Shown in pieces: positions 680-43,296 of a stretch of 64,000 bases of DNA. The position numbers and the translations under genes are program-made. Source of the stretch: Taeniopygia guttata (taxonomy: Eukaryota); NCBI RefSeq assembly GCF_048771995.1, contig NC_133041.1:4663324-4727323 (forward strand). Reading direction: 5' to 3'. Positions within the stretch are counted from its first letter, which is position 1. Every line of letters begins with the position of its first letter. The notes beneath the pieces are model-generated. The model did no database searches. It saw only the letters and a program-made list of their open reading frames with translations, and was not told where the DNA came from.

Positions 680-1615
680 TGAGTCTGATACACCTGGGCA
701 GGTAAATCACACACCTGGGCAGGTAAATCACACACCTGAGGGGGTTAAACACACCTGCAGGACAACATCCAGCACGCCGACCCACCTGTGCAGGTGAGTC
801 TGATACACCTGAGGGGGTTAAACACACCTGGGCAGGTGAGTCTGATACACCTGGGCAGGTAAATCTGACACACCTGAGGGGGTTAAACACACCTGCAGGA
901 CAACATCCAGCACGCCGACCCACCTGTGCAGGTGAGGGACACACCTGAGGGGGTTAAACACACACCTGAGGGGGTTAAACACACCTGCAGGACAACATCC
1001 AGCACGCCGACCCACCTGTGCAGGTAAAGCACACCTGGGCAGGTGAGTCTGACACACCTGTGCAGGTAAATCACACACCTGAGGGGGTTAAACACACCTG
1101 GGCAGGTGAGTCTGACACACCTGTGCAGGTAAATCACACACCTGAGGGGGTTAAACACACCTGGGCAGGTGAGTCTGACACACCTGGGCAGGTGAGTCTG
1201 ACACACCTGAGGGGGTTAAACACACACCTGGGGGGGTTAAACACACCTGGGCAGGTGAGTCTGACACACCTGAGGGGGTTAAACACACCTGCAGGACAAC
1301 ATCCAGCACGCCGACCCACCTGTGCAGGTGAGTCACACCTGGGCAGGTGAGTCTGACACACCTGAGGGGGTTAAACACACACCTGAGGGGGTTAAACACA
1401 CCTGGGCAGGGAAATCACACACCTGGGGGGGTTAAACACACCTGCAGGACAACATCCAGCACGCCGACCCACCTGTGCAGGTAAAGCACACCTGGGCAGG
1501 TGAGTCTGACACACCTGAGGGGGTTAAACACACCTGGGCAGGGAAATCACACACCTGAGGGGGTTAAACACACCTGCAGGACAACATCCAGCACGCCGAC
1601 CCACCTGAGCCCTAA
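680..1615 (+). repeat. Tandem array (CACCTG-core minisatellite) containing six degenerate copies of the last ~45 nt of the EIF3C exon at 519-678 ([13 protein letters not shown] plus the donor caggtgag)
   Basis: Copies lie at about 752-796, 888-936, 982-1030, 1286-1334, 1437-1487 and 1570-1606. Five keep the GT donor; the last is truncated. Confidence 0.9.
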
Positions 1616-4600
1616 AATTGCCAAAAAAATTTCCAAAAAATGCTAAAAAAAATCCCCCAAAAATGCTAAAAAAAATCCCCCAAAATTGCCAAAAAAATCC
1701 CGCAAATTTTCCAAAAAAATTGCTAAAAAAAAACCCCAAAATTACTAAAAAAATCGCCCAAAATTGCCAAAAAAACGCCCCAAAATTGCTTAAAAAAATG
1801 CCCCAAAATTCCTAAAAAAATCACCCAAGTTTTCCACAAATCACCAAAAATTGCTAAAAAATCACCCAAAAGTTTCCAAAAATCACCCAAAATTTACAAA
1901 AAATCACCCAAAATTTACAAAAATCACCCACTTGTCTCATCTGAGACTCATCTGGGCATCCTCATTTTTTACCCTAAATCCCTCCAAAAATCCCCCTCAA
2001 AACCCCCTAAAATCACCCAAAAATCACTGAAAATTGCCAAAAATCCCCAAAATCCCCAAAACCCCCAAAATCTCCTTTTTTCCCGCAGATCCTGTACAAC
2101 CGCACCATGGTGCAGCTGGGCATCTGCGCCTTCCCTCACCTGTCCCACCTGTCCCAAGAAACCCCCTAAAACCCCCTAAAATCACCCAAAATTGCCAGAA
2201 AAGTCACCAAAAACCGCCTTAAATCACCCAAAATTGCTAAAAAATTCCCCAAAATTGCTAACAAATTTTTCCAAAATTTCTAAAAAAATCCCTCAAAAAT
2301 GCTAAAAATATTCCTAAATTTGCCCCAAAATTCCCCAAAATTGCCAAAAAAAATTCCAAAAATTGCTAAAAAAAACCACCCAGAATTTTCCAAAAATCAC
2401 CCTAAATTGCCAAAAAATCCCCCAAAATTGCCCAAAAAATCCCCCAAAATTTACAAAAAATCACCGAAAATTGTTAAAAAATCAACCAAAAATCACCAAA
2501 AAAATCCCCAAAATCCTCCCAAAATCACCAAAAATCCCCCTCAAAACCCCCAAAATCCCCCAAAAATCCCAAAAATTCCCAAAAACCCCCAAAAACCCCC
2601 CAAAAATCTCCTTTTTTTCCAGATCCTGTACAACCGCACGATGGTGCAGCTGGGCATCTGCGCCTTCCCTCACCTGTCCCACCTGTCCCAAGAAACCCCC
2701 TAAAATCACCCAAAATTGCCAGAAAAATCACCAAAAACCATCTAAAATCACCCAAAATGGCCAAAAAAATCACTAAAAACCACCTAAAATCACCCAAAAT
2801 TGCTAAAAAAATCACCCAAAATTTCAAAAAAAAAAATCCCAAAATTGCCCAAAAAATCCCCCAAAATTGCTAAAAAATCACTCAAAATTGCTAAAAAAAA
2901 ATCACACAAAATTTACAAAAAATCCCCCAAAATTGCTAAAAAATCCCCTAAAATTGCCCAAAAAATCACTCAAAATTGCTATAAAAAATCCCCCAAAATT
3001 GCCCAAAAAATCCCCCAAATTTGCTCAAAAAAATCCCCCAAAATTGCCAAAAAATCACTCAAAATTGCTAAAAAAATCACATAAAATTTACAAAAAATCT
3101 CCCAAAATTGCTAAAAAAATCCCCCCAAAGTGCCATAAAATCACCCAAAATTGCCAAAGAAATCCCTTAAAATAGCTAAAAAATCTCACAAAATTGCCAA
3201 AAAAATTCCCCAAATTTTCAAAAATAATCCCCCAAATTTTCCAAAAATCACCCAGAATCTCTAACAAAATTCCCCCAAAATGCTAAAAAATCCCCAAAAA
3301 TTGCTAAAATAAATCACCCCAAAATTTTTTTTTAAATCCCCCAAAATTGCTTAAAAATCCCAGAAAATTGCTAAAAAAATTCCCCAAAATTGCTAAAAAA
3401 ATTCCCCAAAATTGCTAAAAAAATTCCCCAAAATTGCTAAAAAAAATCACCCGAAATTGCAAAAAAAACCACCCAAAATTGTTTAAAAATCACCCAAAAA
3501 TCACCAAAAAAATCCCCAAAATCCTCCCAAAATCACCAAAAATCACCAAAAAAAACCCCAAAATTCCCAAAATCCCCAAAACTCCCCAAAACCCCAAAAA
3601 TCTCCTTTTTTTTCCCCAGATCCTGTACAACCGCACGATGGTGCAGCTGGGCATCTGCGCCTTCCCTCACCTGTCCCACCTGTCCCAAGAAACCCCCTAA
3701 AGTCACCCAAAATTGCCAAAAAAATCACCAAAAACCATCTAAAATCACCCAAAATGGCCAAAAAAATCACTAAAAACCACCTAAAATCACCCAAAATTGC
3801 TAAAAAAATCACCCAAAATTTAAAAAAAAAAATCCCAAAATTGCCCAAAAAATCCCCCAAAATTGCCAAAAAAATCACCCAAAATTGCTAAAAAAATCAC
3901 CCAAAAATGCTAAAAAATCTTCCCAAAATTGCTAAAAAGAAATCCCTTCAAAATAGCTGAAAAATCCCCTAAATTTGCCCCAAAAATCCCCCAAAATTGC
4001 CAAAAAAATCACCCAAAATTGCTAACAAAATTCCCCAAAATTGCTAAAAGAATTCCCCAAAATTGCTGAAAAATCACCCAAATTTGCTCAAAAAAATCCC
4101 CCAGAATTTTGCAAAAATCACCAAAATTGCCAATAAAATCACCCAAAATTGCCAAAAATCACCTACATTTTCCAAAAATCACCCACCTGTCCCACTTGGG
4201 ACTCACCTGGGCACCTCAAATCCTCATTTTTTACCCTAAATCCCCCTAAAAATCCATCAAAAATCTCCCTCAAAACCCTCTAAAATTCCCCCAAAGCCCC
4301 TTAAAATCACTGAAAATTGCCAAAAATCACCAAAAACCCCCAAAAATCTCCCTTTTATCCCCAGATCCTGTACAACCGCACGATGGTGCAGCTGGGCATC
4401 TGCGCCTTCCCTCACCTGTCCCAAGAAACCCCCTAAAACCCCCTAAAATCACCCAAAATTGCCAGAAAAATCACCCAAAATTGCTAATAAAATTCCCCAA
4501 AATTGCTAAAAAAATCACCCAAATTTGCCAAAAAAATTCTTCAAAAATGCAAAAAAAATTCCCAAAAAATGTTTAAAAAATTCCCCAAAATTGCTAAAAA

Positions 4601-6475
4601 AATCACCCAAGATGTACAAAAAATGACTCGAAATTGCCAAAAAATACCCCAAATATTGCCAAAAAAATTGCCCAAAAATTCCCCAAAATTGCTTAAAAAT
4701 CCCTCAAAATTGCGAAAATAAATCCCCCAAAAATGCTAAAAAACCCCCCCAAAATGCTAAAAAAATCCCCTAAAATTGCAAAAAAAATCACCCAAAATTG
4801 CCAAAAAAAGCACCCAAAATTACTAAAAAATTTCCCAAAAATGCTAAAAATTCCCTTTAATTTGCCCCAAAAATCAGCCAAAATTGCCAAAGAAGTCCCT
4901 CAAAAATGCTAAAAAAATCCCCCAAAATTGCCATAAAATCCCCCAAAATTTTCCAAAAATCCCCCAAAATTGCCAAAAAAATCCCCCAAAAATCCCCAAA
5001 AACCCCCCAAAATCCCCAAAAATCCCAAAAAATCTCCTTTTTCCCAGCTCCTGTACAACCGCACGATGGTGCAGCTGGGCATCTGCGCCTTCCCTCACCT
5101 GTCCCAAGAAACCCCCTAAAATCACCCAAAATTCCCAAAAAAATCCCCCAAAATTGCTAAAAAAATCCCCCAAAATTGCCATAAAATCTCCCAAAATTGC
5201 TAAAAAATCCCGCAAAGCTGCTAAAAAAATCACCCAAAATTACCCAAAATATCCCCCAAAATTTACAAAAAACTACCCAAAAATGCTGAAAAATCCCCCA
5301 AAATTGCTAAAAAGAAATCCTCTCAAAATAGCTGAAAAATCCCCTAAATTTGCCCCAAAAATCCCCCAAAATTGCTCAAAAAATCCCCCAAAATTTCTTT
5401 AAAAATCCCTCAAAAATGCTAAAAAATGACCCAAAAATCCCCCCTAATTTACAAAAAATCACCCAAAATTGCTATAAATATTCCCTAAAATTGCTAAAAA
5501 AATCACTCAAAAGTCCCATAAAATCACCCAAAATTGCCAAAAATCACCCACATTTTCCAAAAATCACCCAAAATTGCTAAAAAAATCCCCCAAAATTGCC
5601 AAAAAAATTCCCAAAAATGCTAAAAATATCCCCCAAAATTTACAAAAAATTCCCAAAAATTGCCAAAAAATTACCAAAAAAATTCCCAAAATTCCCCAAA
5701 ATCCCAAAAAAAACCCCCAAAATCTCCAAAACTTTTTTTTTTGCAGATCCTGTACAACCGCACGATGGTGCAGCTGGGCATCTGCGCCTTCCCTCACCTG
5801 TCCCAAGAAACCCCTGAAAACCCCCTAAAATCACCCAAAATTGCCAGAAAAGTCACCAAAAACCATCTAAAATCACCTAAAATTGCCAAAAAAATTACAA
5901 AAAACCGCCTTAAATCACCCAAAATTGCTAAAAAAATCACCCAAAATTTCAAAAAAAAAATCCCAAAATTGCCAAAAAAATCCCCCAAATTTGCCCCAAA
6001 AAATCCCCCAAAATGCTAAAAAATCTCACTAAATTGCCAAAAAACTTCCTAAAATTCCTAAAAAATCCCACAAAATTGCTAAAGAAATCCCCCAAAAATG
6101 ATAAAAAAGTCACCCAGAATTTTCCAAAAATCACCCAAAATTGCCAAAAAAATCCCCCAAAATTGCTAAAAGAATCACCCAGAATGTTCCAAAAATCACC
6201 CAAAATTGCCAAAAAAAATCCCAAAAAATGCTAAAAAATATTCGAAGTTGCTAAAAAAACATCAAAATTGCCATAAAATCACCCAAAATTGCCCAAAAAC
6301 TCACCCAAAATTGCCAAAAAAATTCAACTAAATTGCCAAAAAAATCCCCCAAAATTTACAAAAAATCCCCCAAAAATCACCCAAAATTGTTAAAAAATCA
6401 CCCAAAAATCACAAAAAAACACCCCAAAATTCCCAAAACCCCCAAAAAACCCAAAAACCCCTTTTTTCTCCCCAG
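1616..6475 (+). repeat. 4.8-kb A-rich microsatellite-like array (ccaaaattgccaaaaaaatcacc variants) organised as ~0.7-kb higher-order units, each carrying a copy of the first ~50 nt of the next EIF3C exon with its acceptor (cag|ATCCTGTACAACCGCACGATGGTGCAGCTGGGCATCTGCGCCTTCC)
   Basis: Pseudo-exon copies lie at about 2089, 2623, 3619, 4364, 5048 (an atc-to-ctc variant) and 5747. The real exon starts at 6476. After gccttcc, every copy diverges to ctcacctgtccc. Confidence 0.9.
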
Positions 6476-6839
6476 ATCCTGTACAACCGCACGATGGTGC
6501 AGCTGGGCATCTGCGCCTTCCGGCAGGGGCTGATCAAGGACGCGCACAACGCGCTGCTGGACATCCAGAGCTCCGGCCGGGCCAAGGAGCTGCTGGGCCA
6601 AGGTCTTCTCCTGCGCAGCCTCCAGGAGCGCAACGCCGAGCAGGAGAAGGTGGAGAAGCGCCGCCAGGTGCCCTTCCACATGCACGTCAACCTGGAGCTC
6701 CTCGAGTGCGTCTACCTGGTGGCCGCCATGCTGCTGGAGATCCCCTACATGGCGGCGCACGAGTTCGACGCGCGCCGCCGCATGATCAGCAAGCAGTTCC
6801 ACCACCAGCTGCGCGTGGGCGAGAGGCAGCCGCTGCTGG
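6476..6839 (+). CDS. EIF3C: EIF3C exon, translating [122 protein letters not shown]
   Basis: About 95% identity to the PCI-domain region of human eIF3c. The acceptor is ccccag|atc and the donor ctgctgg|gtgagg, leaving phase 1 to join the next exon. Confidence 0.9.
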
Positions 6840-6849
6840 GTGAGGGGCA

Positions 6850-8930
6850 GATTTAGGAATTTTTATCCAAAATTGGGTTCTTGAGGTCCATAATTACCTC
6901 AGTTCGGTCTTGGTTTGGTTTTTCTATCACTTAAAATGGCAGTTGTAGATCTTCTTGAGGTTCCTCAGACCATTTGTGGCATTTTACCAGATTTGGAGGT
7001 TTTGGGATGAAATTTTGTGTTCTTGAGGTCCATAATTATCTTGATTTGGTCTTGGTTTGGTTTTTCTACCCCTTAAAATGGCGGTTCTAGATCTTCTTGA
7101 GGTTCCTCAGACCGTGCTTAGAGATTTTGACCAAAATTTTGGGATTTTGACCCAGAATTGGGTTCTTCAGGTCCATAATTACCTTAATTCAGCCTTGGTT
7201 TTGTTTTTCTATTTCTTAAAATGGCGGTTCTAGATCTTCATGAGGTTCCTCAGACTGTGCTTAGAGATTTTGACCAAAATTTCGGGATTTTGACTCAAAA
7301 TTGGGTTCTTGAGGTCCATAATTACCTTAATTTGGCTTTACTTTGGTTTTTGTATCACTTAAAATGGCCGTTCTAGATCTTCATTAGGTTCCTCAAACCA
7401 TGGTTGGTGGTTTTTGAACATAATTGGAAGTTTTAGGTTGAAATTTTGGGGTTTTGGGGTCAAAAGTTGGGTTTGGAGGTCCATAATTATCTTAATTCGG
7501 TCTTGGTTTGGTTTATCTATCTCTTAAAATGGCGATTCTAGATCTTCTTGAGGTTCCTCAGACTGTGCTTAGAGATTTTGACCAAAATTTCAGGATTTTG
7601 ACTCAAAATTGGGCTCTTGAGGTCCATAATTACCTTAATTCAGTTTTAGTTTGGTTTTTTTATCACTTAAAATGGCGGTTCTAGATCTTCTTGAGGTTTC
7701 TCAGACAAAAATTGAGTTTTTTCACCGAAGTCTAGGAATTTTGACCCAAAATTGGGTTCTTGAGGCCCATAATTACCTTTATTTGGTCTTGGTTTGGTTT
7801 TTCTATCTCTTAAAATGGCGGGTCTAGATCTTCATAAAGTTCCTCAAATCATGTCTGGTGGCTTTGACCAGAGTTTGTTGATTTTGACCCAAAATTGGGT
7901 TCATCAGGTCCATAATTACTTAATTTGGTCTTGGTTTGGTTTTTGTATCACTTAAAATGAAGATTTTAGATCTTCTTGAGGTTCTTCACACCATGGTTGG
8001 TGGTTTTTACCAAAATTTTGGGATTTTGACCCAGAATTGGGTTCTTCAGGTCCATAATTACTTAATTTGGTCTTGGTTTCGTTTTTCTATCTCTTAAAAT
8101 CGCGGTTCCAGACCTTCATGAGGTTCCTCAGACCATGGTGTGGGATTTTGACCAAAATTTTGGGATTTTGACCCAGAATTGGGTTCTTGAGGTCCATAAT
8201 TACTTTGATTTGGTCTTGGTTTGGTTTTTTTATCTCTAAAAATGAAGATTCTAGATCTTCCTGAGGTTCCTCAGACAATGGTTGGGGATTTTGACCAAAA
8301 TTTCAGGATTTTGATCCAGAATTGGGTTCTTGAGGTCCATAATTATCCTAATTCAGCTTTAGTTACCTTTTTTAGCCCTTAAAATGGCGGTTCTAGATCT
8401 TCATTATGTTCCTCAGACCATTTGTGGTATTTTACCAAATTTGGAGGTCTTAGCTTGAAATTTTGGGGTCTTGAGGTCCATAATTACCTTAATTCAGTTT
8501 TAGTTTGTTTTTTTTTATCACTTAAAATGGCGGTTCTAGATCTTCCTGAGGTTCCTCAGACCGTGATTTGAGATTTTGACAAAAATTTAGGAATTTTTAT
8601 CTAAAATTGGGTTCTTGAGGTCCATAATTATCCTAATTCAGCTTTAGTTACCTTTTTTAGCCCTTAAAATGGCGGTTCTAGATCTTCCTTAGGTTCCTCA
8701 GACCATTTGTGGTATTTTACCAGATTTGGAGGTTTTGGGATGAAATTTTGGGTTCTTGAGGTCCATAATTACTTAATTTGGTCTTGGTTTGGTTTTTTTA
8801 TCTCTTAAAATGAAGATTCTAGATCTTCCTTAGGTTCCTCAGACCATGGTTTGGGATTTTGACCAAAATTTCGGGATTTTGACCCAGAATTGGGTTCTTC
8901 AGCTCCATAATTACCTTAATTCGGCTTTAC
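6850..8930 (+). repeat. About 15 tandem copies of a ~140-bp AT-richer satellite (core ...gttcttgaggtccataattaccttaattcagtcttggtttggtttttctatcacttaaaatggcggttctagatcttcttgaggttcctcagacc...gattttgaccaaaattt.gggattttgacccagaattgg) in an EIF3C intron
   Basis: ggtccataatta recurs about every 135-150 bp from 6886 to 8905. Copies are 85-95% identical. Confidence 0.9.
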
Positions 8931-9171
8931 TTCTGTTTTTTACCCCAAAAATTCCCATTTTTTTGCCCAAAATCACCATTTTTCACCCCAAAACTGCCAA
9001 TTTTTTACTCCAACCTGTCTCAGGTGCTTTTCTGACCTCCAAAATCCAAAAAAAATCCCATTTTTTTGCCCCAAAACCACTGATTTTTTGGGATTTTTTT
9101 TTATTTCCCGTCCCCTCACCTGCCCCAGTGTCCCTCACCTGTCCCAGGTGTGTCTCACCTGTCCCCCCCAG

Positions 9172-9331
9172 GTCCCCCCGAGTCGATGCGGGAGCACGTG
9201 GTGGCCGCCTCCAAGGCCATGAAAACGGGCGACTGGCGGCGCTGCCATCGCTTCGTGGTCAATGAGAAGATGAACGGAAAGGTCTGGGACCTGTTCCCCG
9301 AGGCCGACCAGGTGCGCGCCATGCTGGTCAG
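9172..9331 (+). CDS. EIF3C: EIF3C exon, translating (G)[53 protein letters not shown]
   Basis: Matches human [53 protein letters not shown]. The acceptor is cccccag|gt and the donor gtcag|gtgagc. Confidence 0.9.
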
Positions 9332-9339
9332 GTGAGCAC

Positions 9340-10600
9340 ACCAAAATTTGGGGGGTTTTGGGAAAATTTGGGCGAAATTTGGGCGATTTTTGGCCATTTT
9401 TTGGTGATTTTATAGTGATTTTTGGGGGGTTTTTAGGGGCATTAAAGGGTTAAAAATGAGGGTTTGAGGTGCTCAGGTGAGTCTCAGGTGAGCCTCAGGT
9501 GAGTCAGGTGAGTCCCACCTGGGCCAATTAAAAATTTTGGGGGATTTTGGGAAATTTTGGGCGAATTTTGGCAATTTTGAGCAATTTTACGGTGATTTTT
9601 TAGAGATTTTCGGGGGTTTTTGGGGAGGATTTTCGGCAGGAAATGAGGATTTAAAGTGATCAGGTGTGTCTCAGGTGAGTCTCACCTGGGCAGGTGTGGC
9701 CAGGTTAAAAAAAACTGTGAATTTTGGGGGATTTTGGGCAATTTTGGGTGAATATTGCCAATTTCGGATAATTTTTGGCATTTTTAAGTGATTTTTGGGG
9801 GTTTTGGGGTGATTTTGGCCGTTTTGGGGGGATTTGGGGAGGTTCAAAGTCTGGGACCTGTTCCCCGAGGCCGACCAGGTGCGCGCCATGCTGGTCAGGT
9901 GAGCGACCCCAAATTTTGGGGGGTTTTGGGAAAATTTGGGCGAAATTTCGGCGATTTTTGGCCATTTTTGGGCGATTTTATAGCGATTTTTAGGGGTTTT
10001 TTTGGGGCGTTAAGGGTTAAAAATGAGGATTTGAGGTGCTCAGGTGAGTCTCAGGTGAGCACACCTGGACACAGGTGAAAAAATTTAGGGGGAATTTTCA
10101 GGGATTTTGGGCAATTTTGGGCAAATTTTGGCCATTTTTGGGTGATTTTAGAGGGATTTTAGAGGGATTTTTGGGGGTTTTTGGGGAGATTTACGGTTAA
10201 AAATGAGGATTTGAGGTGCTCAGGTGAGTCTCAGGTGAGTCTCAGGTGAGCACACCTGGACACAGGTGAAAAATTTTTGGGGTAAATTTGGGCAAATTTT
10301 GGCAATTTTGGGTGAATTTTCGGCAATTTTGAGCGATTTTAGGGCGGTTTTATGGGGATTTTCGGGGTTTTTTGGGAGATTTAGGGTTAAAAATGAGGAT
10401 TTGAGGTGCTCAGGTGAGTCTCAGCTGAGTCTCACCTGGGCAGGTGTGGCCAGGTAAAGAAAAACGTGAATTTCGGGGAATTTTGGGCGAATTTTGGCAA
10501 TTTTGGGTGATTTTAGGGGGATTTTAAGAGAATTTGGGGTAAAAAATGTGGATTTGAGGTGCCCAGGTGCACCCAGGTGTGCCCAGGTAAGGAAATTTAG
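9340..10600 (+). repeat. Intronic array of ~250-bp units ending in gtgctcaggtgagtctcaggtgagc; one unit (9848-9898) contains a copy of the 3' end of the EIF3C exon at 9172-9331 with its donor
   Basis: gtctgggacctgttccccgaggccgaccaggtgcgcgccatgctggtcag|gtgagcg at 9848-9898 duplicates 9281-9338. Confidence 0.85.
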
Positions 10601-11330
10601 CCAATTTTGGAATATTTTGGGATATTTTGGGACATTTTGGGGCAGGAAATGAGAATTTGGGGGGTCAGGGGCGTGCCCAGGTGTGCCCAGGTGTGCCCAG
10701 CTGCCCCCAGGTGTGCCCAGCTGCCCCCAGGTGTGCCCAGGTGTGCCCCAGGTACCCTCAGGTGTGCCCAGGTGTATCCCAGGTGTGCCCAGGTGTATCT
10801 CAGGTGTATCTCAGGTGTGCCCAGGTGTGCCCAGGTGTGCCCAGGTGCCCCAGGTGTGCCCAGGTGTGCCCAGGTGTGCCAGGTGTGCCAAGGTGGCCCC
10901 AGGTGTATCTCAGGTGTGCCCAGGTGTGCCCAGGTGTGCCCAGGTGCCCCAGGTGTGCCCAGATGTGCCCAGGTGTGCCCAGGTGTGCCCAGGTGTATCT
11001 CAGGTGGTGCCCAGGTGTGCCCAGGTGTGCCCAGGTGTGCCCAGGTGTATCTCAGGTGTGCCCAGCTGTGCCCAGGTGTGCCCCAGGTGTGCCCAGGTGT
11101 GCCCAGGTGTGCCCAGGTGTATCCCAGGTACCCCCAGGTGTGCCCAGGTGTATCTCAGGTGCCCCCAGGTGCCCCCAGGTGCCCCCAGGTGCCCCCAGGT
11201 GCCCCCAGGTGTGCCCAGGTGTATCTCAGGTGTGCCCAGGTGTGCCCAGGTGTGCCCAGGTGCCCCCAGGTGTGCCCAGGTGTATCCCAGGTGTGCCCAG
11301 GTGTGCCAGCTGTGCCCTCTGTGCCCGCAG
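10600..11330 (+). repeat. Array of about 80 copies of (CCCAGGTGTG) with a CAGGTG E-box core, ending at the acceptor of the EIF3C exon at 11331
   Basis: The period is 9-10 bp. All three forward reading frames are open (ORFs 10607-11536, 10627-11454 and 10683-11489). Confidence 0.9.
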
Positions 11331-15300: not shown

Positions 15301-16413
15301 GGGGTTACCTGCAGCACAGGTGAGTCACCTGTGACCCCGTTTGGGGCCATTTTGGGGTGATTTTGGTCGGGTTTGGGGCAATTTTGGGCAGTTTTGGGGC
15401 AATCTCAGGTGGGTTTTCAGGGGTTACCTGCAGGACAGGTGAGCCTCACCTGGGCCCACTTTAGACCTCACTGGATGAGCCCAAGGTCACCACGATGATG
15501 GGGTGACCCCATTTGGGGCCATTTTGGGGTGATTTTGGGCAGGTTTGGGGTGATTTTTGGTAGTTTTGGGGTGATTTCGGGTGGGTTTTTGGGGGTTACC
15601 TGCAGGACAGGTGAGTCTCACCTGGGCCCACTTTAGACCTCACTGGATGAGCCCAAGGTCACCATGATGGTGGGGTGACCCCATTTGGGGCCATTTTGGG
15701 GTGATTTTGGGCAGTTTTGGGGCGATTTTGGGTGGGTTTTTGGGGGGGTTACCTGCAGGACAGGTGAGTCTCACCTGGGCACACCTGCAGGCCTCGCTGG
15801 ACCAGCCCACGGCCACGGTGATGATGGGGTGACCCCGTTTGTGGCCATTTTGGGGTGATTTTGGGCAGTTTTGGGGTGATTTTGGATGGGTTTTTGGGGC
15901 GGTTACCTGCAGGACAGGTGAGTCTCACCTGGGCACACCTGCAGGCCTCGCTGGACCAGCCCACAGCCACGGTGATTGTGGGTTGACCCCATTTGATGCC
16001 ATTTTGGGGTGATTTTGAGCAGGTTTGGGGCAGTTTTGGGGTGATTTCGGGTGGGTTTTTGGGGGTTACCTGCAGGACAGGTGAGCCTCACCTGGGCCCA
16101 CTTAAGACCTCACTGGATGAGCCCAAGGCCACCATGATGATGGGGTGACCCCGTTTGGGGCCATTTTGGGGTGATTTTGGGCAGTTTTGGGACGATTTTG
16201 GGTGGGTTTTTGGGGGGTTACCTGCAGGACAGGTGAGTCTCACCTGGGCACACCTGCAGGCCTCGCTGGACCAGCCCACAGCCACGGTGATGATGGGGTG
16301 ACCCCGTTTGGGGCCATTTTGGGGTTATTTTGGGCAGTTTTGGAGCGATTTCGGGTGGGTTTTTGGGGGGGTTACCTGCAGGACAGGTGAGTCTCACCTG
16401 GGCACACCTGCAG
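15300..16413 (+). repeat. About seven tandem ~120-bp units, each containing a copy of the acceptor and first ~45 nt of the EIF3C exon at 16414 (cacctgcag|GCCTCGCTGGACCAGCCCACGGCCACGGTGATGATG..)
   Basis: Close copies lie at about 15783, 15939 and 16250. Diverged copies (..ctcactggatgagcccaaggtcaccacgatgatgggg) lie at about 15461, 15630 and 16100. Confidence 0.88.
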
Positions 16414-16576
16414 GCCTCGCTGGACCAGCCCACGGCCACGGTGATGATGCACCGGACGGAGCCGACGGCCACGCAGAACCTGGCGCTGCAGCTGGCCGAG
16501 AAGTTGGGCAACCTGGTGGAGAACAACGAGCGGGTGCTGGACCAGCGGCAGGGCGCCTACGGGGGGTACTTCAGAG
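16414..16576 (+). CDS. EIF3C: EIF3C exon, translating [54 protein letters not shown](D)
   Basis: Matches human [55 protein letters not shown]. The acceptor is cacctgcag|gcc and the donor ttcagag|gtgagc. Confidence 0.88.
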
Positions 16577-40759: not shown

Positions 40760-43140
40760 GACACCCCTGACCCCTGACCTCTGACCCCTGACCTCTGACC
40801 TCTGACCCCTGACCACTGACCACTGACCCCTGACCACTGACTGCTGACCTCCTGACCCTCCAAATGACCCCTGAGTGACCCCGAACCACCCCTGAGTGAC
40901 CTTTTGACCTCCCAAACCGCCCCTAGGTGACTTTTTGACCCTCTGACCGACCCCTGACTGACCCCTTGACCCCTGACTGACCCCTTGACCACCAGAATGA
41001 CCCCTTGTCCACCTGAGTGTCCCCTTGACCACCCGAGTGACCCCTTGACTGACCCCTTGGCCCCTTGAGTGACCTTTTGACCTCCCAAACCACCCCTAAA
41101 TGACCTTTTAACCCCCTCAATGACCCCTGACTGACCCCTTGACCACCTGAGTGACCCCTCGACTGACCCCTTGAGTGACCTCTTGACCCTCCCAATGACC
41201 CCTGAGTGACCTTTTGACTGCCCAAACCACCCCTAAATGACCTTTTAACCCCCTAAATTACTTTTTAACCCCCTGACTGACCCCTTGATGACCCAAGTGA
41301 CCCCTTGTCCATCTGAGTGACCCCTCGACTGACCTCTTGACCCCTTGACTCACCTCTTGACCCTCCAAATGACCCCTTGAGTGACCTCTTGACCCTCCAA
41401 ATGACCCCTAAGTGACCCCGAACCACCCCTGAATGACCTTTTGACCTCCCAAACTGCCCCTAAATAACCTTTTAACCCCCTAAATGACTTTTTAACCCCC
41501 CGCCTGACCCCTGACTGACCCCGTGACCCTTGTGTGACCCTTGACTGACCCCTGACTGACCCCTGACTGACCCCTTGACCCCTTGACTGACCTCTTGACC
41601 CTCCCAATGACCCCTGAGTGACCTTTTGACTGCCCAAACCACCTTTAAATGACCTTTTAACCCCCCAAATGACGTTTTAACCCCCTCAATGACTTTTTAA
41701 CCCCCCAAGTGACCCCTGACTGACCCCTTGACCACCTTACTGAACCCTTGACCCCTTGAGTGACCTTTTGACCTCCCAAACCGCCCTTAAATGACCTTTT
41801 AACCCCCTCAATGACTTTTTAACCCACCAAATGACCCCTGAAGGACTTGTTAACCCCCTAAATGACCCCTGCCTGACCCCGTGACCCCTGACTGACCCTT
41901 GACTGACCCCTGACTGACCCCTGACTGACTCCTTGACCACCCGAGTGACCCCTTGACTGACCTCTTGACCCTCCAAATGATCCCTAAGTGACCCCGAACG
42001 ACCCCTGAATGACCTTTTGACCCCCCAAACTATCCCTAAACGACCTTTTAACCCCCTGACTGACCCCGTGACCCCTGAATGACCCCTTGACCACCTGAGT
42101 GACCCCAAACCACCCCTGAATGACCTCTTGACCCTCCAAATGACCCCTGAATGACCTTTTGACCACCCAAACCGGCCTTAAATGACTTTTTAACCTCCTA
42201 AGTGACTTTTTAACTCCCTTAATGACTTTTTAACCCCCCAAATGACCCCTGACTGACCCCTTGTCCACCTGACTGACCCCTAACCCCTTGAGTGACCTTT
42301 TGACCACCCAAACCATTTTTAAATGGCCATTTAACCCCCAAAATGACTTTTTAACCCACCAAATGACCCCTGAAGGACTTGTTAACCCCCCGCCTGACCC
42401 CTGCCTGACCCTGTGACCCCTGACTGACCCCTGTGTGACCCCTGCCTGACCCCTGACTGGCCCCTTGACCACCTGAGTGACCCCTTGACTGACCTCTTGA
42501 CTCTACAAATGACCCCTGAATGACCCCGAACCACCCCCTAATGACCTTTTGACCACCCAAACTGTCCCTAAACGACCTTTTAACCCCCTGACTGACCCCT
42601 GACTGACCCCTTGACCACCCGAGTAACCCCTTGACCACCCCTTGACCCTCTGAGTGACCCCTCGACTGACCCCTTGACCCCTTGAGTGACCTTTTGACTG
42701 CCCAAACCACCTTTAAATGACCTTTTAACCCTTTATGTGACTTTTTAAACCTCCTAAATGACCTTTTAATGCCCCAAATGACTTTCTAACCCCCTGACTG
42801 ACCCCTGCCTGACCCCGTGACCCCTGTGTGACCCCTGTGACCCCCTCAGCGGTGCGAGGCGGCGTTCGCCACGCGGGACCGGCTGCGGGCGCATTCGGCG
42901 CGGCACCAGGAGAAATCACTGACTGACCCCTGACTGACCCCTGACTGACCCCTGCCTGACCCCCTGACCCCTGTGTGACCCCTGTGACCCCTGTCAGCGG
43001 TGCGAGGCGGCGTTCGCCACGCGGGACCGGCTGCGGGCGCATTCGGCGCGGCACCAGGAGAAATCACTGACTGACCCCTGACTGACCCCTGACTGACCCC
43101 TGCCTGACCCCCTGACCCCTGTGTGACCCCTGTGACCCCT
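40760..43140 (+). repeat. tgacccctgactgacccc / tgacc.tttaacccc arrays with two truncated copies of the MAZ exon-4 head (42848-42915 and 43006-43072)
   Basis: ccctcag|CGGTGCGAGGCGGCGTTCGCCACGCGGGACCGGCTGCGGGCGCATTCGGCGCGGCACCAGGAGAAATC is present three times. Only the third copy continues into the rest of the exon. Confidence 0.88.
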
Positions 43141-43145
43141 GTCAG

Positions 43146-43296
43146 CGGTGCGAGGCGGCGTTCGCCACGCGGGACCGGCTGCGGGCGCATTCGGCGCGGC
43201 ACCAGGAGAAATCCCCGTGTCCCGTCTGCGGGAAACTGCTCAGCCCCGCCCACCTCGGGGAGCACCTGCGCGGCCACGGACACGCCCCCAGGACAG
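43146..43296 (+). CDS. MAZ: MAZ exon, translating RCEAAFATRDRLRAHSARHQEKSPCPVCGKLLSPAHLGEHLRGHGHAPRT(G)
   Basis: Matches human KCEAAFATKDRLRAHTVRHEEKVPCHVCGKMLSSAYISDHMKVHSQGP. The acceptor is gtcag|cgg and the donor acag|gtcagc. Two truncated copies of the 5' part lie just upstream at 42848-42915 and 43006-43072. Confidence 0.85.

Follow-up and report, generated by a model that had tools for sequence, protein, structure and literature searches.

In one intron of EIF3C, the zebra finch (Taeniopygia guttata) carries a tandem array with a complex unit of about 143 bp. Is this unit a member of a satellite family with further arrays elsewhere, the amplified fragment of an old interspersed element, or a product of the intron itself? 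We addressed this question in a window of 64,000 nucleotides (GCF_048771995.1, contig NC_133041.1, positions 4,663,324 to 4,727,323 of the forward strand), whose own coordinates are used below, and in the orthologous sequences of other birds. The results lead us to regard the array, with a probability of roughly 0.75, as a locally generated intronic higher-order repeat that arose from the “sequence stuttering” of avian dot chromosomes.

Structure of the array and its host intron

The coding exons that flank the array were recognized by tblastn and by their Pfam domains (eIF-3c_N and PCI); they stop at 6840 and restart at 9172, which bears out the placement within an EIF3C intron given in the preliminary description. 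Both exons are intact and in frame, and the tandem blocks are confined to the single intron between them, of which the 143-bp repeat occupies 89%. Exon A matches human EIF3C at 88% (tblastn), and its homologues are bird EIF3C sequences, 97-99% identical. The features of the locus are the following:

6476 to 6840, forward strand: EIF3C coding exon A (ending in GERQPLLG), directly upstream of the array; acceptor AG at 6474-6475, donor GT at 6841-6842; tblastn and Pfam eIF-3c_N (1.8e-49)
6841 to 9171, forward strand: array-bearing intron of 2,331 bp, GT...AG; tblastn places the exon junction between QPLLG and PPESMREH, which are contiguous in homologous proteins
6851 to 6873, forward strand: incomplete spacer that opens the array 11 nt past the 5' splice site and amounts to about one 20-bp minisatellite unit
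6874 to 8890, forward strand: 14 full monomers, each a core of about 99 bp followed by a spacer of 43-46 bp made of two units of about 20 bp (alignment in register, core HMM E values of 1e-25 to 1e-29, spacer table)
Starts of the full monomers, forward strand: 6874, 7016, 7159, 7302, 7467, 7610, 7753, 7896, 8038, 8180, 8323, 8464, 8608 and 8749
7302 to 7466, forward strand: variant monomer m04, whose spacer has three units (66 bp) and which is 165 bp long (15 x 11) (register and spacer table)
8891 to 8951, forward strand: truncated 15th monomer, core positions 1-63 (nhmmer, E 9.7e-9)
8936 to 9171, forward strand: intron tail with short C/A-rich 21-22-bp repeats and CCCTCACCTGTCCCAGGTGT repeats (TRF rows 8936-9013 and 9113-9165), then the polypyrimidine tract and the acceptor AG at 9170-9171
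9172 to 9331, forward strand: EIF3C coding exon B (ending in AMLV(R)); tblastn and Pfam PCI

TRF reported a single array at 6851-8924 (period 143, 14.4 copies, 76% matches, 4% indels, score 2026), an anchor search recovered 15 copies at even intervals, all of 141-144 bp save a single one of 165 bp, and alignment in register gave 14 full monomers plus a truncated 15th at 8891-8935, whose end is stretched to 8951 by the HMM. The array of about 15 units noticed at first is thus real. Its copies, however, are less alike than the 85-95% then ascribed to them: between pairs of monomers, identity averages about 77% (range 62-95%), and between monomer and consensus 85.5% (range 69-92%). A gapped pattern derived from the monomers had four matches in the window, all of them within the array, against 0.00 expected in shuffled sequences. 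The register alignment further revealed monomer subtypes, with a consistent pattern of substitutions between non-identical copies, and a second TRF period of 285 bp (82% matches) adds a weak dimeric higher-order layer. The spacer of the variant monomer shares 82% identity with the long spacers of Zonotrichia, compared with 58% for the best-matching spacer of the window.

Tandem arrays detected by TRF make up 82% of the window, and 48 of them measure at least 300 bp. Of these, the 143-bp array is the only one without a TRF-detected sub-period of 9-22 bp, and in this respect it does stand apart, as first described. The related statement that it is compositionally unlike its neighbours holds for strand skew and sequence complexity and fails for GC content: GC skew is about +0.1 in the array, -0.65 upstream and +0.5 downstream, whereas its GC content (0.35-0.37) falls within that of the upstream arrays (0.30-0.40).

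Search for copies outside the intron

If the array were one of several belonging to a satellite family dispersed in passerine genomes (in dot heterochromatin or at subtelomeric or pericentromeric sites), its position in an intron would be incidental. The monomer length, which lies within the classical satellite range, the weak 285-bp dimeric period together with the monomer subtypes, and a conservation across songbird families like that of some songbird satellites are all consistent with such a family. However, neither the core HMM nor the anchor search found the core outside the EIF3C intron on either strand of the 64-kb window or of the orthologous contigs, which add 45 kb and bring the passerine DNA searched to about 109 kb. 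Instead of a long homogeneous array of tens of kilobases or more, we found 2.1 kb of repeats with a mean pairwise identity of 77%, residing in the same intron in four species and with spacer units that are those of the local minisatellite. A wider satellite family is therefore unlikely.

Searches of metagenome, prokaryote, protein and full-text collections gave chance matches only, which weigh weakly against a satellite family as these collections hold no bird genomes. The gapped pattern, which matches 25 monomers across the four species, hit none of the contigs in the metagenome scan, a collection without bird genomes. A 20-mer had matches in 10 contigs from metagenomes and in 3 from bacterial genomes; these were discarded as array copies, being limited to the 20-26 nt around the 20-mer and never in tandem, and are all attributable to chance. 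A search of 5.8 billion proteins with an 11-sequence alignment of translated monomers had no hits, a negative result that is uninformative, and a full-text search for GGTCCATAATTA returned only listings of PAX6 primers. No 143-bp passerine satellite emerged from the literature search, nor is the EIF3C-intron array described in the literature searched.

Other tandem repeats conserved among passerines are the satellites Tgut191A and Tgut716A. By their descriptions, these are set apart as genome-wide centromeric or subtelomeric families with units of 191 and 716 bp and tens of thousands of copies; the EIF3C array, in contrast, has 15 copies in one intron and no known copies elsewhere.

Short-period structure of the 143-bp unit

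Autocorrelation of the array peaks at lags of 21, 41-42, 61-62, 81-82, 101-102 and 122 bp (z 5-12), and its Fourier spectrum at 20.4, 11.0 and 10.2 bp, the strongest period being 11.0 bp for A and 10.2 bp for T. The unit lengths obey the same arithmetic, since 143 = 7 x 20.4 = 13 x 11 = 14 x 10.2 and 165 = 15 x 11. The array thereby shows the two properties by which the intronic minisatellites of dot chromosomes are recognized, a unit length that is a multiple of 10-11 bp and phased A/T tracts. Tandem repeats make up more than 70% of zebra finch dot-chromosome introns, their unit lengths being multiples of 10-11 bp (bioRxiv 10.1101/2025.10.17.683159), and the degenerate intronic minisatellites of zebra finch dot euchromatin have units of 10-30 bp and are rich in A-phased repeats (bioRxiv 10.1101/2025.10.14.682431, 10.1101/2025.10.17.683159). 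The likeness extends to the 20-bp spacer units, to A/T phasing at 10.2-11 bp and to a window that is 82% tandem repeat; the difference is that here seven sub-units form a higher-order repeat, with inner units diverged past detection by TRF, and that no other large array of the window is of this type. The “nucleosome-sized” unit of the preliminary description is probably a coincidence, as a length of 7 x 20.4 or 13 x 11 bp fits a class whose units are multiples of 10-11 bp (bioRxiv 10.1101/2025.10.17.683159).

The periodicity reaches into the core. The core consensus alone is self-similar at lag 21 (p = 0.003) and at lag 42 (p = 0.0007), with a family-wise significance that is modest in the window (0.04) and absent in the other three consensus sequences. 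It aligns in phase to a tandem 21-bp unit, TGGGGTTTTGAGGTCAAAAAT, with z 8.8 for the whole core and z 4.1 (p = 0.004) for its inner 79 bp; the reverse complement aligned to TGGGGTTTTGAGGTCAAAAAT gave a background score only. The inner 79 bp gave no signal with two of the three minisatellite units tried. Two neighbouring units of the window, AATTTTGGGGGATTTTGGGC and the reverse complement of AAAATCCCCCAAAATTGCCAAA, were rejected as templates, their alignment to the core not exceeding that of shuffled sequences, and the only templates that align to it are units with the TTGAGGTC motif.

The monomer can be linked to an older avian minisatellite. In the turaco (Tauraco), a non-passerine, the intron that precedes the same exon consists of a 21-bp minisatellite with the unit TCATCATCTCCTTGAGGTTCC. 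This unit agrees with core positions 76-94 in 18 of 19 bases; the match of core 1-70 to it was not significant (p = 0.11). The TTGAGGTYC unit is present in the core and also builds the 21-bp minisatellite of turaco EIF3C. Within the window, the 14-mer CTTGAGGTTCCTCA occurs inside the array only (0.03 occurrences expected).

Recognizable units comprise the two at the 3' end of the monomer, which form the spacer, the first 21 bp or so of the core, and core positions of about 73-95. Similarity is 77-85% between monomers and about 41% between sub-units, as a higher-order repeat would predict: shorter-period sub-units have diverged, and the monomers resemble one another more than their sub-units do. 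The assignment is weakly supported in the central 50 bp or so of the core (about 22-72), which are weakly periodic and strongly diverged; this stretch may have been unique intron sequence at the outset, or a fragment of foreign origin.

The latter case would make the centre of the monomer a piece of an old interspersed element (a SINE, LINE tail or LTR) that had landed in the minisatellite and been amplified with the flanking units. In keeping with it, core 22-72 is not convincingly minisatellite-like when taken alone, and the array has no short TRF sub-period, unlike all 47 other large arrays. Several observations argue against it, namely (i) Rfam gave no match to tRNA, SINE or other RNA at E <= 1, (ii) no ORF or Pfam signal was detected, (iii) the core alone is self-similar at lags 21 and 42 and aligns in phase to the 21-bp unit on the forward strand only, and (iv) a second copy is absent from the 109 kb of passerine DNA. 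An origin from such an element is accordingly improbable. In the proposal that a fragment of an older interspersed element had been locally amplified, the local amplification is supported, given that the core is absent elsewhere in the window and in the three contigs and sits in the same intron in four songbirds; the element has found no support, given the 20.4-bp sub-period, the in-phase 21-bp alignment and the lack of Rfam, ORF and Pfam signals.

The higher-order repeats of classical satellites are made in the same manner. As in primate alpha satellite, diverged sub-units (about 41% alike at lag 21) have been amplified as a block whose copies are 77-85% alike, with a weak dimeric layer of 285 bp above. 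Unlike alpha satellite, the sub-unit is of about 20 bp and not of about 171 bp, the array spans 2 kb in an intron of an expressed gene and not megabases of a centromere, and we found no evidence of a chromosomal function.

The orthologous intron in other birds

The core HMM located the core in the orthologous intron of three further songbirds, with 15 full copies in Zonotrichia, 5 copies in Melospiza and 3 in Cyanistes, so that at least four oscine species, including that of the window, and three families hold the array. Core identity to the window is about 82% for Zonotrichia and Melospiza and about 70% for Cyanistes; the exons are 94-98% identical to all three alike. In both the window and Zonotrichia, a spacer is built of two units, spanning 43-46 bp, or of three, spanning 66-70 bp; in Cyanistes it reaches about seven units (146-151 bp, period 245). 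The corresponding TRF periods are 143, 165, 171, 286 and 452 in Zonotrichia and 144 and 245 in Cyanistes. Copy number, spacer length and higher-order layout differ in each species, and this variation of intron length and repeat structure between species is one by which stuttering introns are recognized.

The array was absent from the non-passerines sampled. The orthologous intron of Tauraco measures 79 bp, versus 2,331 bp in the window, and two further bird sequences at non-passerine distance (97-98% protein identity) have other repeats after exon A. Descent of the passerine intron from an ancestral short intron was considered and rejected, the alignment to the 79-bp Tauraco intron not exceeding shuffled sequences on either strand; a CCGCCAT(C/T)TT motif common to the Tauraco and passerine introns was set aside as chance.

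Monomer subtypes are common to several species, indicating that the array is old and fairly stable. Likewise, the array is shared across families, and core identity between lineages (82%) is close to that within the array (85%), which makes it older and more stable than the described norm for such repeats.

In principle, an array of this kind could be an assembly error in a region that resists sequencing: a repeat that was collapsed or over-expanded, or a mis-join. Severe drop-outs of HiFi coverage over minisatellites in dot-chromosome euchromatin are known from the literature, and two of the comparison contigs, those of Zonotrichia and Melospiza, stop inside the array. Yet four assemblies, made independently and from different species, all place the same monomer in this intron, and the monomers are not identical but differ by many substitutions, with consistent subtypes. 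An artefact is for these reasons extremely improbable, although the copy number of the array could be wrong in the assembly.

Tests for function

Rfam gave no match at E <= 1 over positions 6500-9400, and the folding of the consensus and of four monomers gave z-scores of -0.46 to +0.56, so that a structured or known RNA was rejected. Coding potential was rejected as well, the ORFs of the array being of 41-63 aa and its stop-to-stop stretches of at most 62 aa, with no Pfam match. Many monomers contain AAAATGGCGG, which we take to resemble a YY1 site. As a candidate binding site it was discarded: it occurs in none of the three Cyanistes copies, is missing from most Zonotrichia copies, and its CpG decays within the window. 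No conserved factor site was found in the array. It also holds roughly 30 GAG|GT sites, candidates at most for cryptic splice donors.

These results bear on the possibility that the array is under selection as a functional element of EIF3C, acting as bent DNA or in nucleosome positioning, as a recombination hotspot, as a cluster of factor sites, or as a regulator of splicing or elongation. That at least four oscines of three families have retained it in the same intron agrees with selection, as do the A/T tracts phased at 10.2-11 bp, the YY1-like AAAATGGCGG in many monomers, and published speculation on intronic minisatellites as recombination hotspots or modifiers of splicing. Against it, the core has kept about 82% identity (Zonotrichia and Melospiza) or about 70% (Cyanistes) where the flanking exons have kept 94-97%; copy number, spacer length and higher-order layout vary in every species; the YY1-like motif is lacking in all 3 Cyanistes copies and in most of those of Zonotrichia; no structured RNA was detected; and an intron of 79 bp suffices in Tauraco. 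Furthermore, 143 bp is shorter than any known nucleosome repeat length. Selection on the array thus appears quite improbable.

Quite improbable too, and slightly more doubtful, is the more specific idea that a phased-A/T higher-order repeat has been kept in this intron since before the split of tits and sparrows for a function, whether as bent DNA, as a recombination hotspot or as a satellite that tunes the transcription or splicing of EIF3C. If it were true, it would be a conserved functional case among stuttering introns of otherwise fast turnover, in an essential translation factor gene. The negative evidence rather suggests that the array is transcribed in the EIF3C pre-mRNA and then spliced out, with neither a product nor a specific binding function. 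It is probably neutral, and its main effect would be the growth of the intron, from 79 bp in turaco to 2.3 kb.

Chromosome context and sequence stuttering

Chicken EIF3C lies on dot chromosome 38 (chr38:191080-288434), and MAZ comes after it in the chr38 list (PMC12954441 supplement). The EIF3C exons of the window have a GC3 of 0.97. About 26 kb downstream there is a C2H2 zinc-finger exon (a generic C2H2 match), presumably resembling MAZ. From the location of the chicken gene, the repeat density, the GC3 value and the MAZ-like neighbour, we infer that the window probably lies on a dot chromosome.

In the introns of genes on avian dot microchromosomes, “sequence stuttering” denotes the imperfect tandem repetition of blocks that measure tens to hundreds of bases (Hron et al., Genome Biol Evol 2026, PMC12954441), and chicken EIF3C is among the 115 exon-stuttering genes listed there (Hron et al., PMC12954441 supplement). 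The zebra finch array resembles that description in that its blocks fill one intron, stop short of the exons and are apparently of local origin, and in the presence of duplicated exon fragments. Such duplicates occur in the same gene: the 3' end of exon B and its donor are copied at 9846-9905, and the 5' end of exon E is copied at 15785, 15939 and 16254 of the window, while Zonotrichia has partial copies of exon A within the array and copies of the 5' end of exon B are repeated in all three orthologous passerine contigs. The difference concerns age. Stuttering expansions in chicken are recent and differ between close species and individuals (PMC12954441), whereas the EIF3C monomer family occupies the orthologous intron of at least four songbirds of three families.

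The reading that we favor, a local higher-order repeat born from stuttering, would run as follows. The 143-bp unit would consist of about seven sub-units of about 20.4 bp, derived from the A/T-phased 20-21-bp TTGAGGTYC minisatellite of bird EIF3C introns. The units that are still recognizable would supply homology in register, through which unequal exchange, replication slippage or non-crossover gene conversion may lengthen or shorten the array by whole units, of 143 bp or, where the spacer has three sub-units, of 165 bp; this amplification mechanism is borrowed from proposals for such repeats. The array would have originated after the passerine lineage split from the sampled non-passerines and before the split of Paridae and the sparrow lineage, and since then it would have stayed in one intron, with slow and partial homogenisation.

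Nothing in these data points to a new kind of biological system. The process is already known, and what is mildly new is the persistence of an array in one intron across several songbird families, as opposed to the recent and species-specific expansions described in chicken. The locus offers a worked example of how a “complex”, satellite-like unit of 143 bp may come from a simple 20-21-bp minisatellite, by divergence and the subsequent amplification of a multi-unit block. If such persistence were general, orthologous arrays could help to date and to model the turnover of repeats on bird dot chromosomes.

On the practical side, the Zonotrichia and Melospiza contigs both terminate inside the array, and the EIF3C gene models are partial in all three passerine comparison assemblies.

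Results

The array lies in an intron of EIF3C: the GC-rich blocks on either side of it are EIF3C exons on the + strand. They were identified by tblastn with a human EIF3C sequence, together with the Pfam domains eIF-3c_N (1.8e-49) and PCI, and their products are 97-99% identical to bird EIF3C homologues. The coding exons form GC-rich islands in the window, with a GC3 of 0.97 in exon A.

Features of the array-bearing intron
6476-6840, + strand: upstream exon (exon A), followed by a GT donor at 6841
6841-9171, + strand: array-bearing intron, 2,331 bp, between the GT donor at 6841 and AG at 9170-9171
From 9172, + strand: downstream exon (exon B), preceded by AG at 9170-9171

The array begins 11 nt past the splice donor and fills 89% of the intron; the final ~235 bp hold short C/A-rich repeats along with the acceptor region. 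Tandem Repeats Finder (TRF) reports a single array at 6851-8924 with a period of 143, 14.4 copies, 76% matches and 4% indels, plus a second period of 285 bp (82%) spanning 7467-8924. The anchor GAGGTCCATAATTA has 15 sites at no more than 3 mismatches, spaced by 141-144 bp with the single exception of 165 bp, and the in-register count is 14 full monomers (6874-8890) followed by a truncated 15th that reaches 8951 by the core HMM. Monomers are 62-95% identical in pairs (mean ~77%) and 69-92% identical to the consensus (mean 85.5%), so the 85-95% given in the preliminary description was too high. That description had also called the array comparatively AT-rich and compositionally unlike its neighbours: strand skew and complexity do differ, but its GC (0.35-0.37) lies inside the 0.30-0.40 spanned by the upstream arrays. 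Its distinctness from the other arrays was borne out. TRF arrays (score at least 50) cover 82% of the 64-kb window, and among the 48 that measure at least 300 bp only this one is without a TRF-detected 9-22-bp sub-period.

Each monomer consists of a ~99-bp core and a 43-46-bp spacer, the latter a pair of ~20-bp units that follow the pattern GGGATTTTGACCCAAAATT(G); two spacer subtypes occur in the array, and the variant monomer m04 (7302-7466) has three units, hence a 66-bp spacer and a length of 165 bp. Autocorrelation of the array peaks at lags 21, 41-42, 61-62, 81-82, 101-102 and 122 (z 5-12) and Fourier power at 20.4, 11.0 and 10.2 bp, so that 143 can be written as 7 x 20.4 or 13 x 11. The sub-period signal comes from the core as well as from the spacer. 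The core consensus of the window is self-similar at lags 21 (p = 0.003) and 42 (p = 0.0007), with a modest family-wise value of 0.04, which was not significant in the core consensuses of the other three species compared. The core can also be aligned in phase to tandem copies of a 21-bp unit, TGGGGTTTTGAGGTCAAAAAT, with z 8.8 over its whole length and z 4.1 over its inner 79 bp; the reverse complement scores at background. Plainly recognisable sub-units are core positions 1-21 and ~73-95 and both spacer units, and the central ~50 bp are weakly periodic. In our reading the monomer is a putative higher-order repeat whose seven sub-units belong to a 20-21-bp minisatellite. Where the central part came from is less certain, and we give a small probability to a transposon origin for it.

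The closest EIF3C proteins are those of songbirds, and the genomic contigs of three of them were compared with the window.

Cores in the orthologous intron and mean core identity
Zonotrichia leucophrys: 15 full cores (identity to the window consensus 82-90%)
Melospiza melodia: 5 cores
Cyanistes caeruleus: 3 full and 1 partial core, 76-82% identity
Mean identity within the window: 84.5%
Mean identity within Zonotrichia: 86%
Mean identity, window versus the two sparrows: ~82%
Mean identity, window versus Cyanistes: 70%

The preliminary description had raised the possibility of a satellite family present elsewhere in the genome. The anchor GAGGTCCATAATTA has no site outside the array at up to 2 mismatches on either strand of the 64-kb window, and no core was found elsewhere in the Zonotrichia, Melospiza and Cyanistes contigs; searches for the repeat in metagenomes, prokaryote genomes, protein space and full texts returned chance matches only. 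That the array belongs to a dispersed satellite family has, in our view, a small probability.

In Cyanistes the cores are separated by either 48 bp or ~150 bp of a pure 20-bp minisatellite, GGGTCAAAAGTTGGGTTTTG (periods 144 and 245), which is direct evidence of a spacer built from minisatellite units in varying number; the Zonotrichia periods are 143, 165, 171, 286 and 452. The nearest relative is conspecific for 28 of the 37 cores, and at one fixed difference all sparrow copies carry CTTGATGTTCC and 12 of 14 window copies CTTGAGGTTCC. The three-unit spacer of m04 is 82% identical to the long spacers of Zonotrichia as against 58% to the closest window spacer. Taken together with the mean core identities, these results argue that homogenisation is real but slow, and that monomer subtypes pre-date the species split.

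Exon fragments also occur in these introns. In the Zonotrichia contig (L001), the 143-bp array contains, at 317-465 and again at 1806-1959, a donor-bearing partial copy of the 3' ~150 nt of exon A. The two copies lie ~1.48 kb apart and are mutually 94% identical, the first being the more diverged from other species. This pairing indicates that a block of exon fragment plus ~9 monomers was itself duplicated; the annotated Zonotrichia gene model begins within it. Both sparrows have, between the 143-bp array and exon B, a 181-bp array (L001 2946-3822; Melospiza contig L002 827-2580) every unit of which takes in the acceptor together with ~42 nt from the start of exon B, with 5-6 copies in Melospiza, and in the Cyanistes contig (L003) the first 67 nt of exon B recur twice more (1013-1079 and 1688-1754). 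No such 5' copies lie upstream of exon B in the window.

Among the species sampled, the 143-bp higher-order unit was found only in four oscines. In Tauraco erythrolophus the two orthologous exons are separated by a 79-bp intron without similarity to the passerine one, and the intron upstream of exon A (contig L004, 1-565) is a 21-bp minisatellite, TCATCATCTCCTTGAGGTTCC, with higher periods of 30, 42, 72 and 102 bp; the expanded EIF3C intron thus differs between bird orders. TCATCATCTCCTTGAGGTTCC agrees with the core at 18 of the 19 bases in positions 76-94, and the 14-mer CTTGAGGTTCCTCA, expected 0.03 times per window, occurs in the window within the array only, which suggests that the sub-unit family pre-dates passerines and belongs to EIF3C. 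Two Logan contigs, probably from birds given their 97-98% protein identity over exon A, stand at a non-passerine nucleotide distance from the window; in both, the exon is followed by GC-rich repeats of another kind, and the core is absent from them. The corresponding intron of a vertebrate EIF3C recovered from a metagenome measures 1.1 kb, with no repeats seen and no match to the core HMM. Three ENA metagenome contigs of up to 33 kb (L005-L007; ERZ27299362, ERZ27256891, ERZ27256893) carry a vertebrate EIF3C with 94% amino acid identity in exon A, compact ~90-bp introns and no tandem-repeat filling, presumably DNA of a non-avian or distant host.

Tests for function gave no Rfam match at E <= 1, RNA folding stability within that of shuffles on both strands, and ORFs inside the array of 41-63 aa at the longest, none with a Pfam match. 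The array consensus diverges more between lineages than the flanking exons do. A motif in the monomers, AAAATGGCGG, which we take to be YY1-like, was rejected as a conserved site, as it is not kept between species. A/T tracts are phased at 10.2-11 bp in the array, as in the neighbouring minisatellites, and this phasing is the sole positive structural property found.

Discussion

Hron et al. (Genome Biol Evol 2026, PMC12954441) described "sequence stuttering" in the introns of chicken dot-chromosome genes, which are filled by imperfect, locally expanded tandem blocks of tens to hundreds of bases that sometimes copy exon ends, and listed chicken EIF3C (chr38) among 115 exon-stuttering genes. In the zebra finch, dot-chromosome introns are more than 70% tandem repeat (bioRxiv 10.1101/2025.10.14.682431, 10.1101/2025.10.17.683159), most commonly minisatellites rich in A-phased repeats with units that are multiples of 10-11 bp (bioRxiv 10.1101/2025.10.17.683159). 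The window fits all of these descriptions, including exon stuttering in EIF3C itself, and we therefore file the array as another instance of the dot-chromosome intron stuttering already described. The single departure is its age: orthologous introns of close species usually differ in their repeat clusters (PMC12954441), whereas this array is common to at least three songbird families. The window fits avian dot-microchromosome euchromatin, a location that we infer from the chicken map together with repeat density and GC3. Amplification may have proceeded by unequal exchange, slippage or gene conversion acting on in-register minisatellite units.

Further repeats and exon copies occur in the window. 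The last ~54 nt of exon B recur, complete with the CAG|GTGAGC donor, at 9846-9905, ~570 bp beyond the true end of the exon and within 187-191-bp repeats (9343-10439); this is an instance of exon stuttering that creates a decoy donor. The same intron has short tandem runs (9472-9514 and 10219-10250) of ~3-4 repeats of CTCAGGTGAGT, a perfect 5' splice-site consensus. A 154-bp array at 15544-16449 (87% matches) repeats the 5' end of an EIF3C exon just upstream of the real one (15785-15826, 15939-15980 and 16254-16295), and 4 copies of this kind occur in Zonotrichia. At 42791-43213, a 148-bp unit, present in 2.9 copies at 98% identity, takes in the first part of a C2H2 zinc-finger exon (CQRCEAAFATRDRLRAHSARHQEK), of which the third copy alone continues in frame (...SPCPVCGKLLSPAHLGEHLRGH); exon stuttering appears to have occurred here very recently. 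A PDB search gave generic C2H2 matches only for this exon, which we take to resemble MAZ. On chicken chr38, MAZ follows EIF3C (PMC12954441). Finally, one minisatellite flanks exon A and the array but is inverted from one flank to the other, reading AAAATCCCCCAAAATTGCCAAA upstream (1500-6460) and AATTTTGGGGGATTTTGGGC downstream (9343-10640). These have a common 16-mer as reverse complements, and the GC skew flips from about -0.65 upstream to +0.5 downstream.
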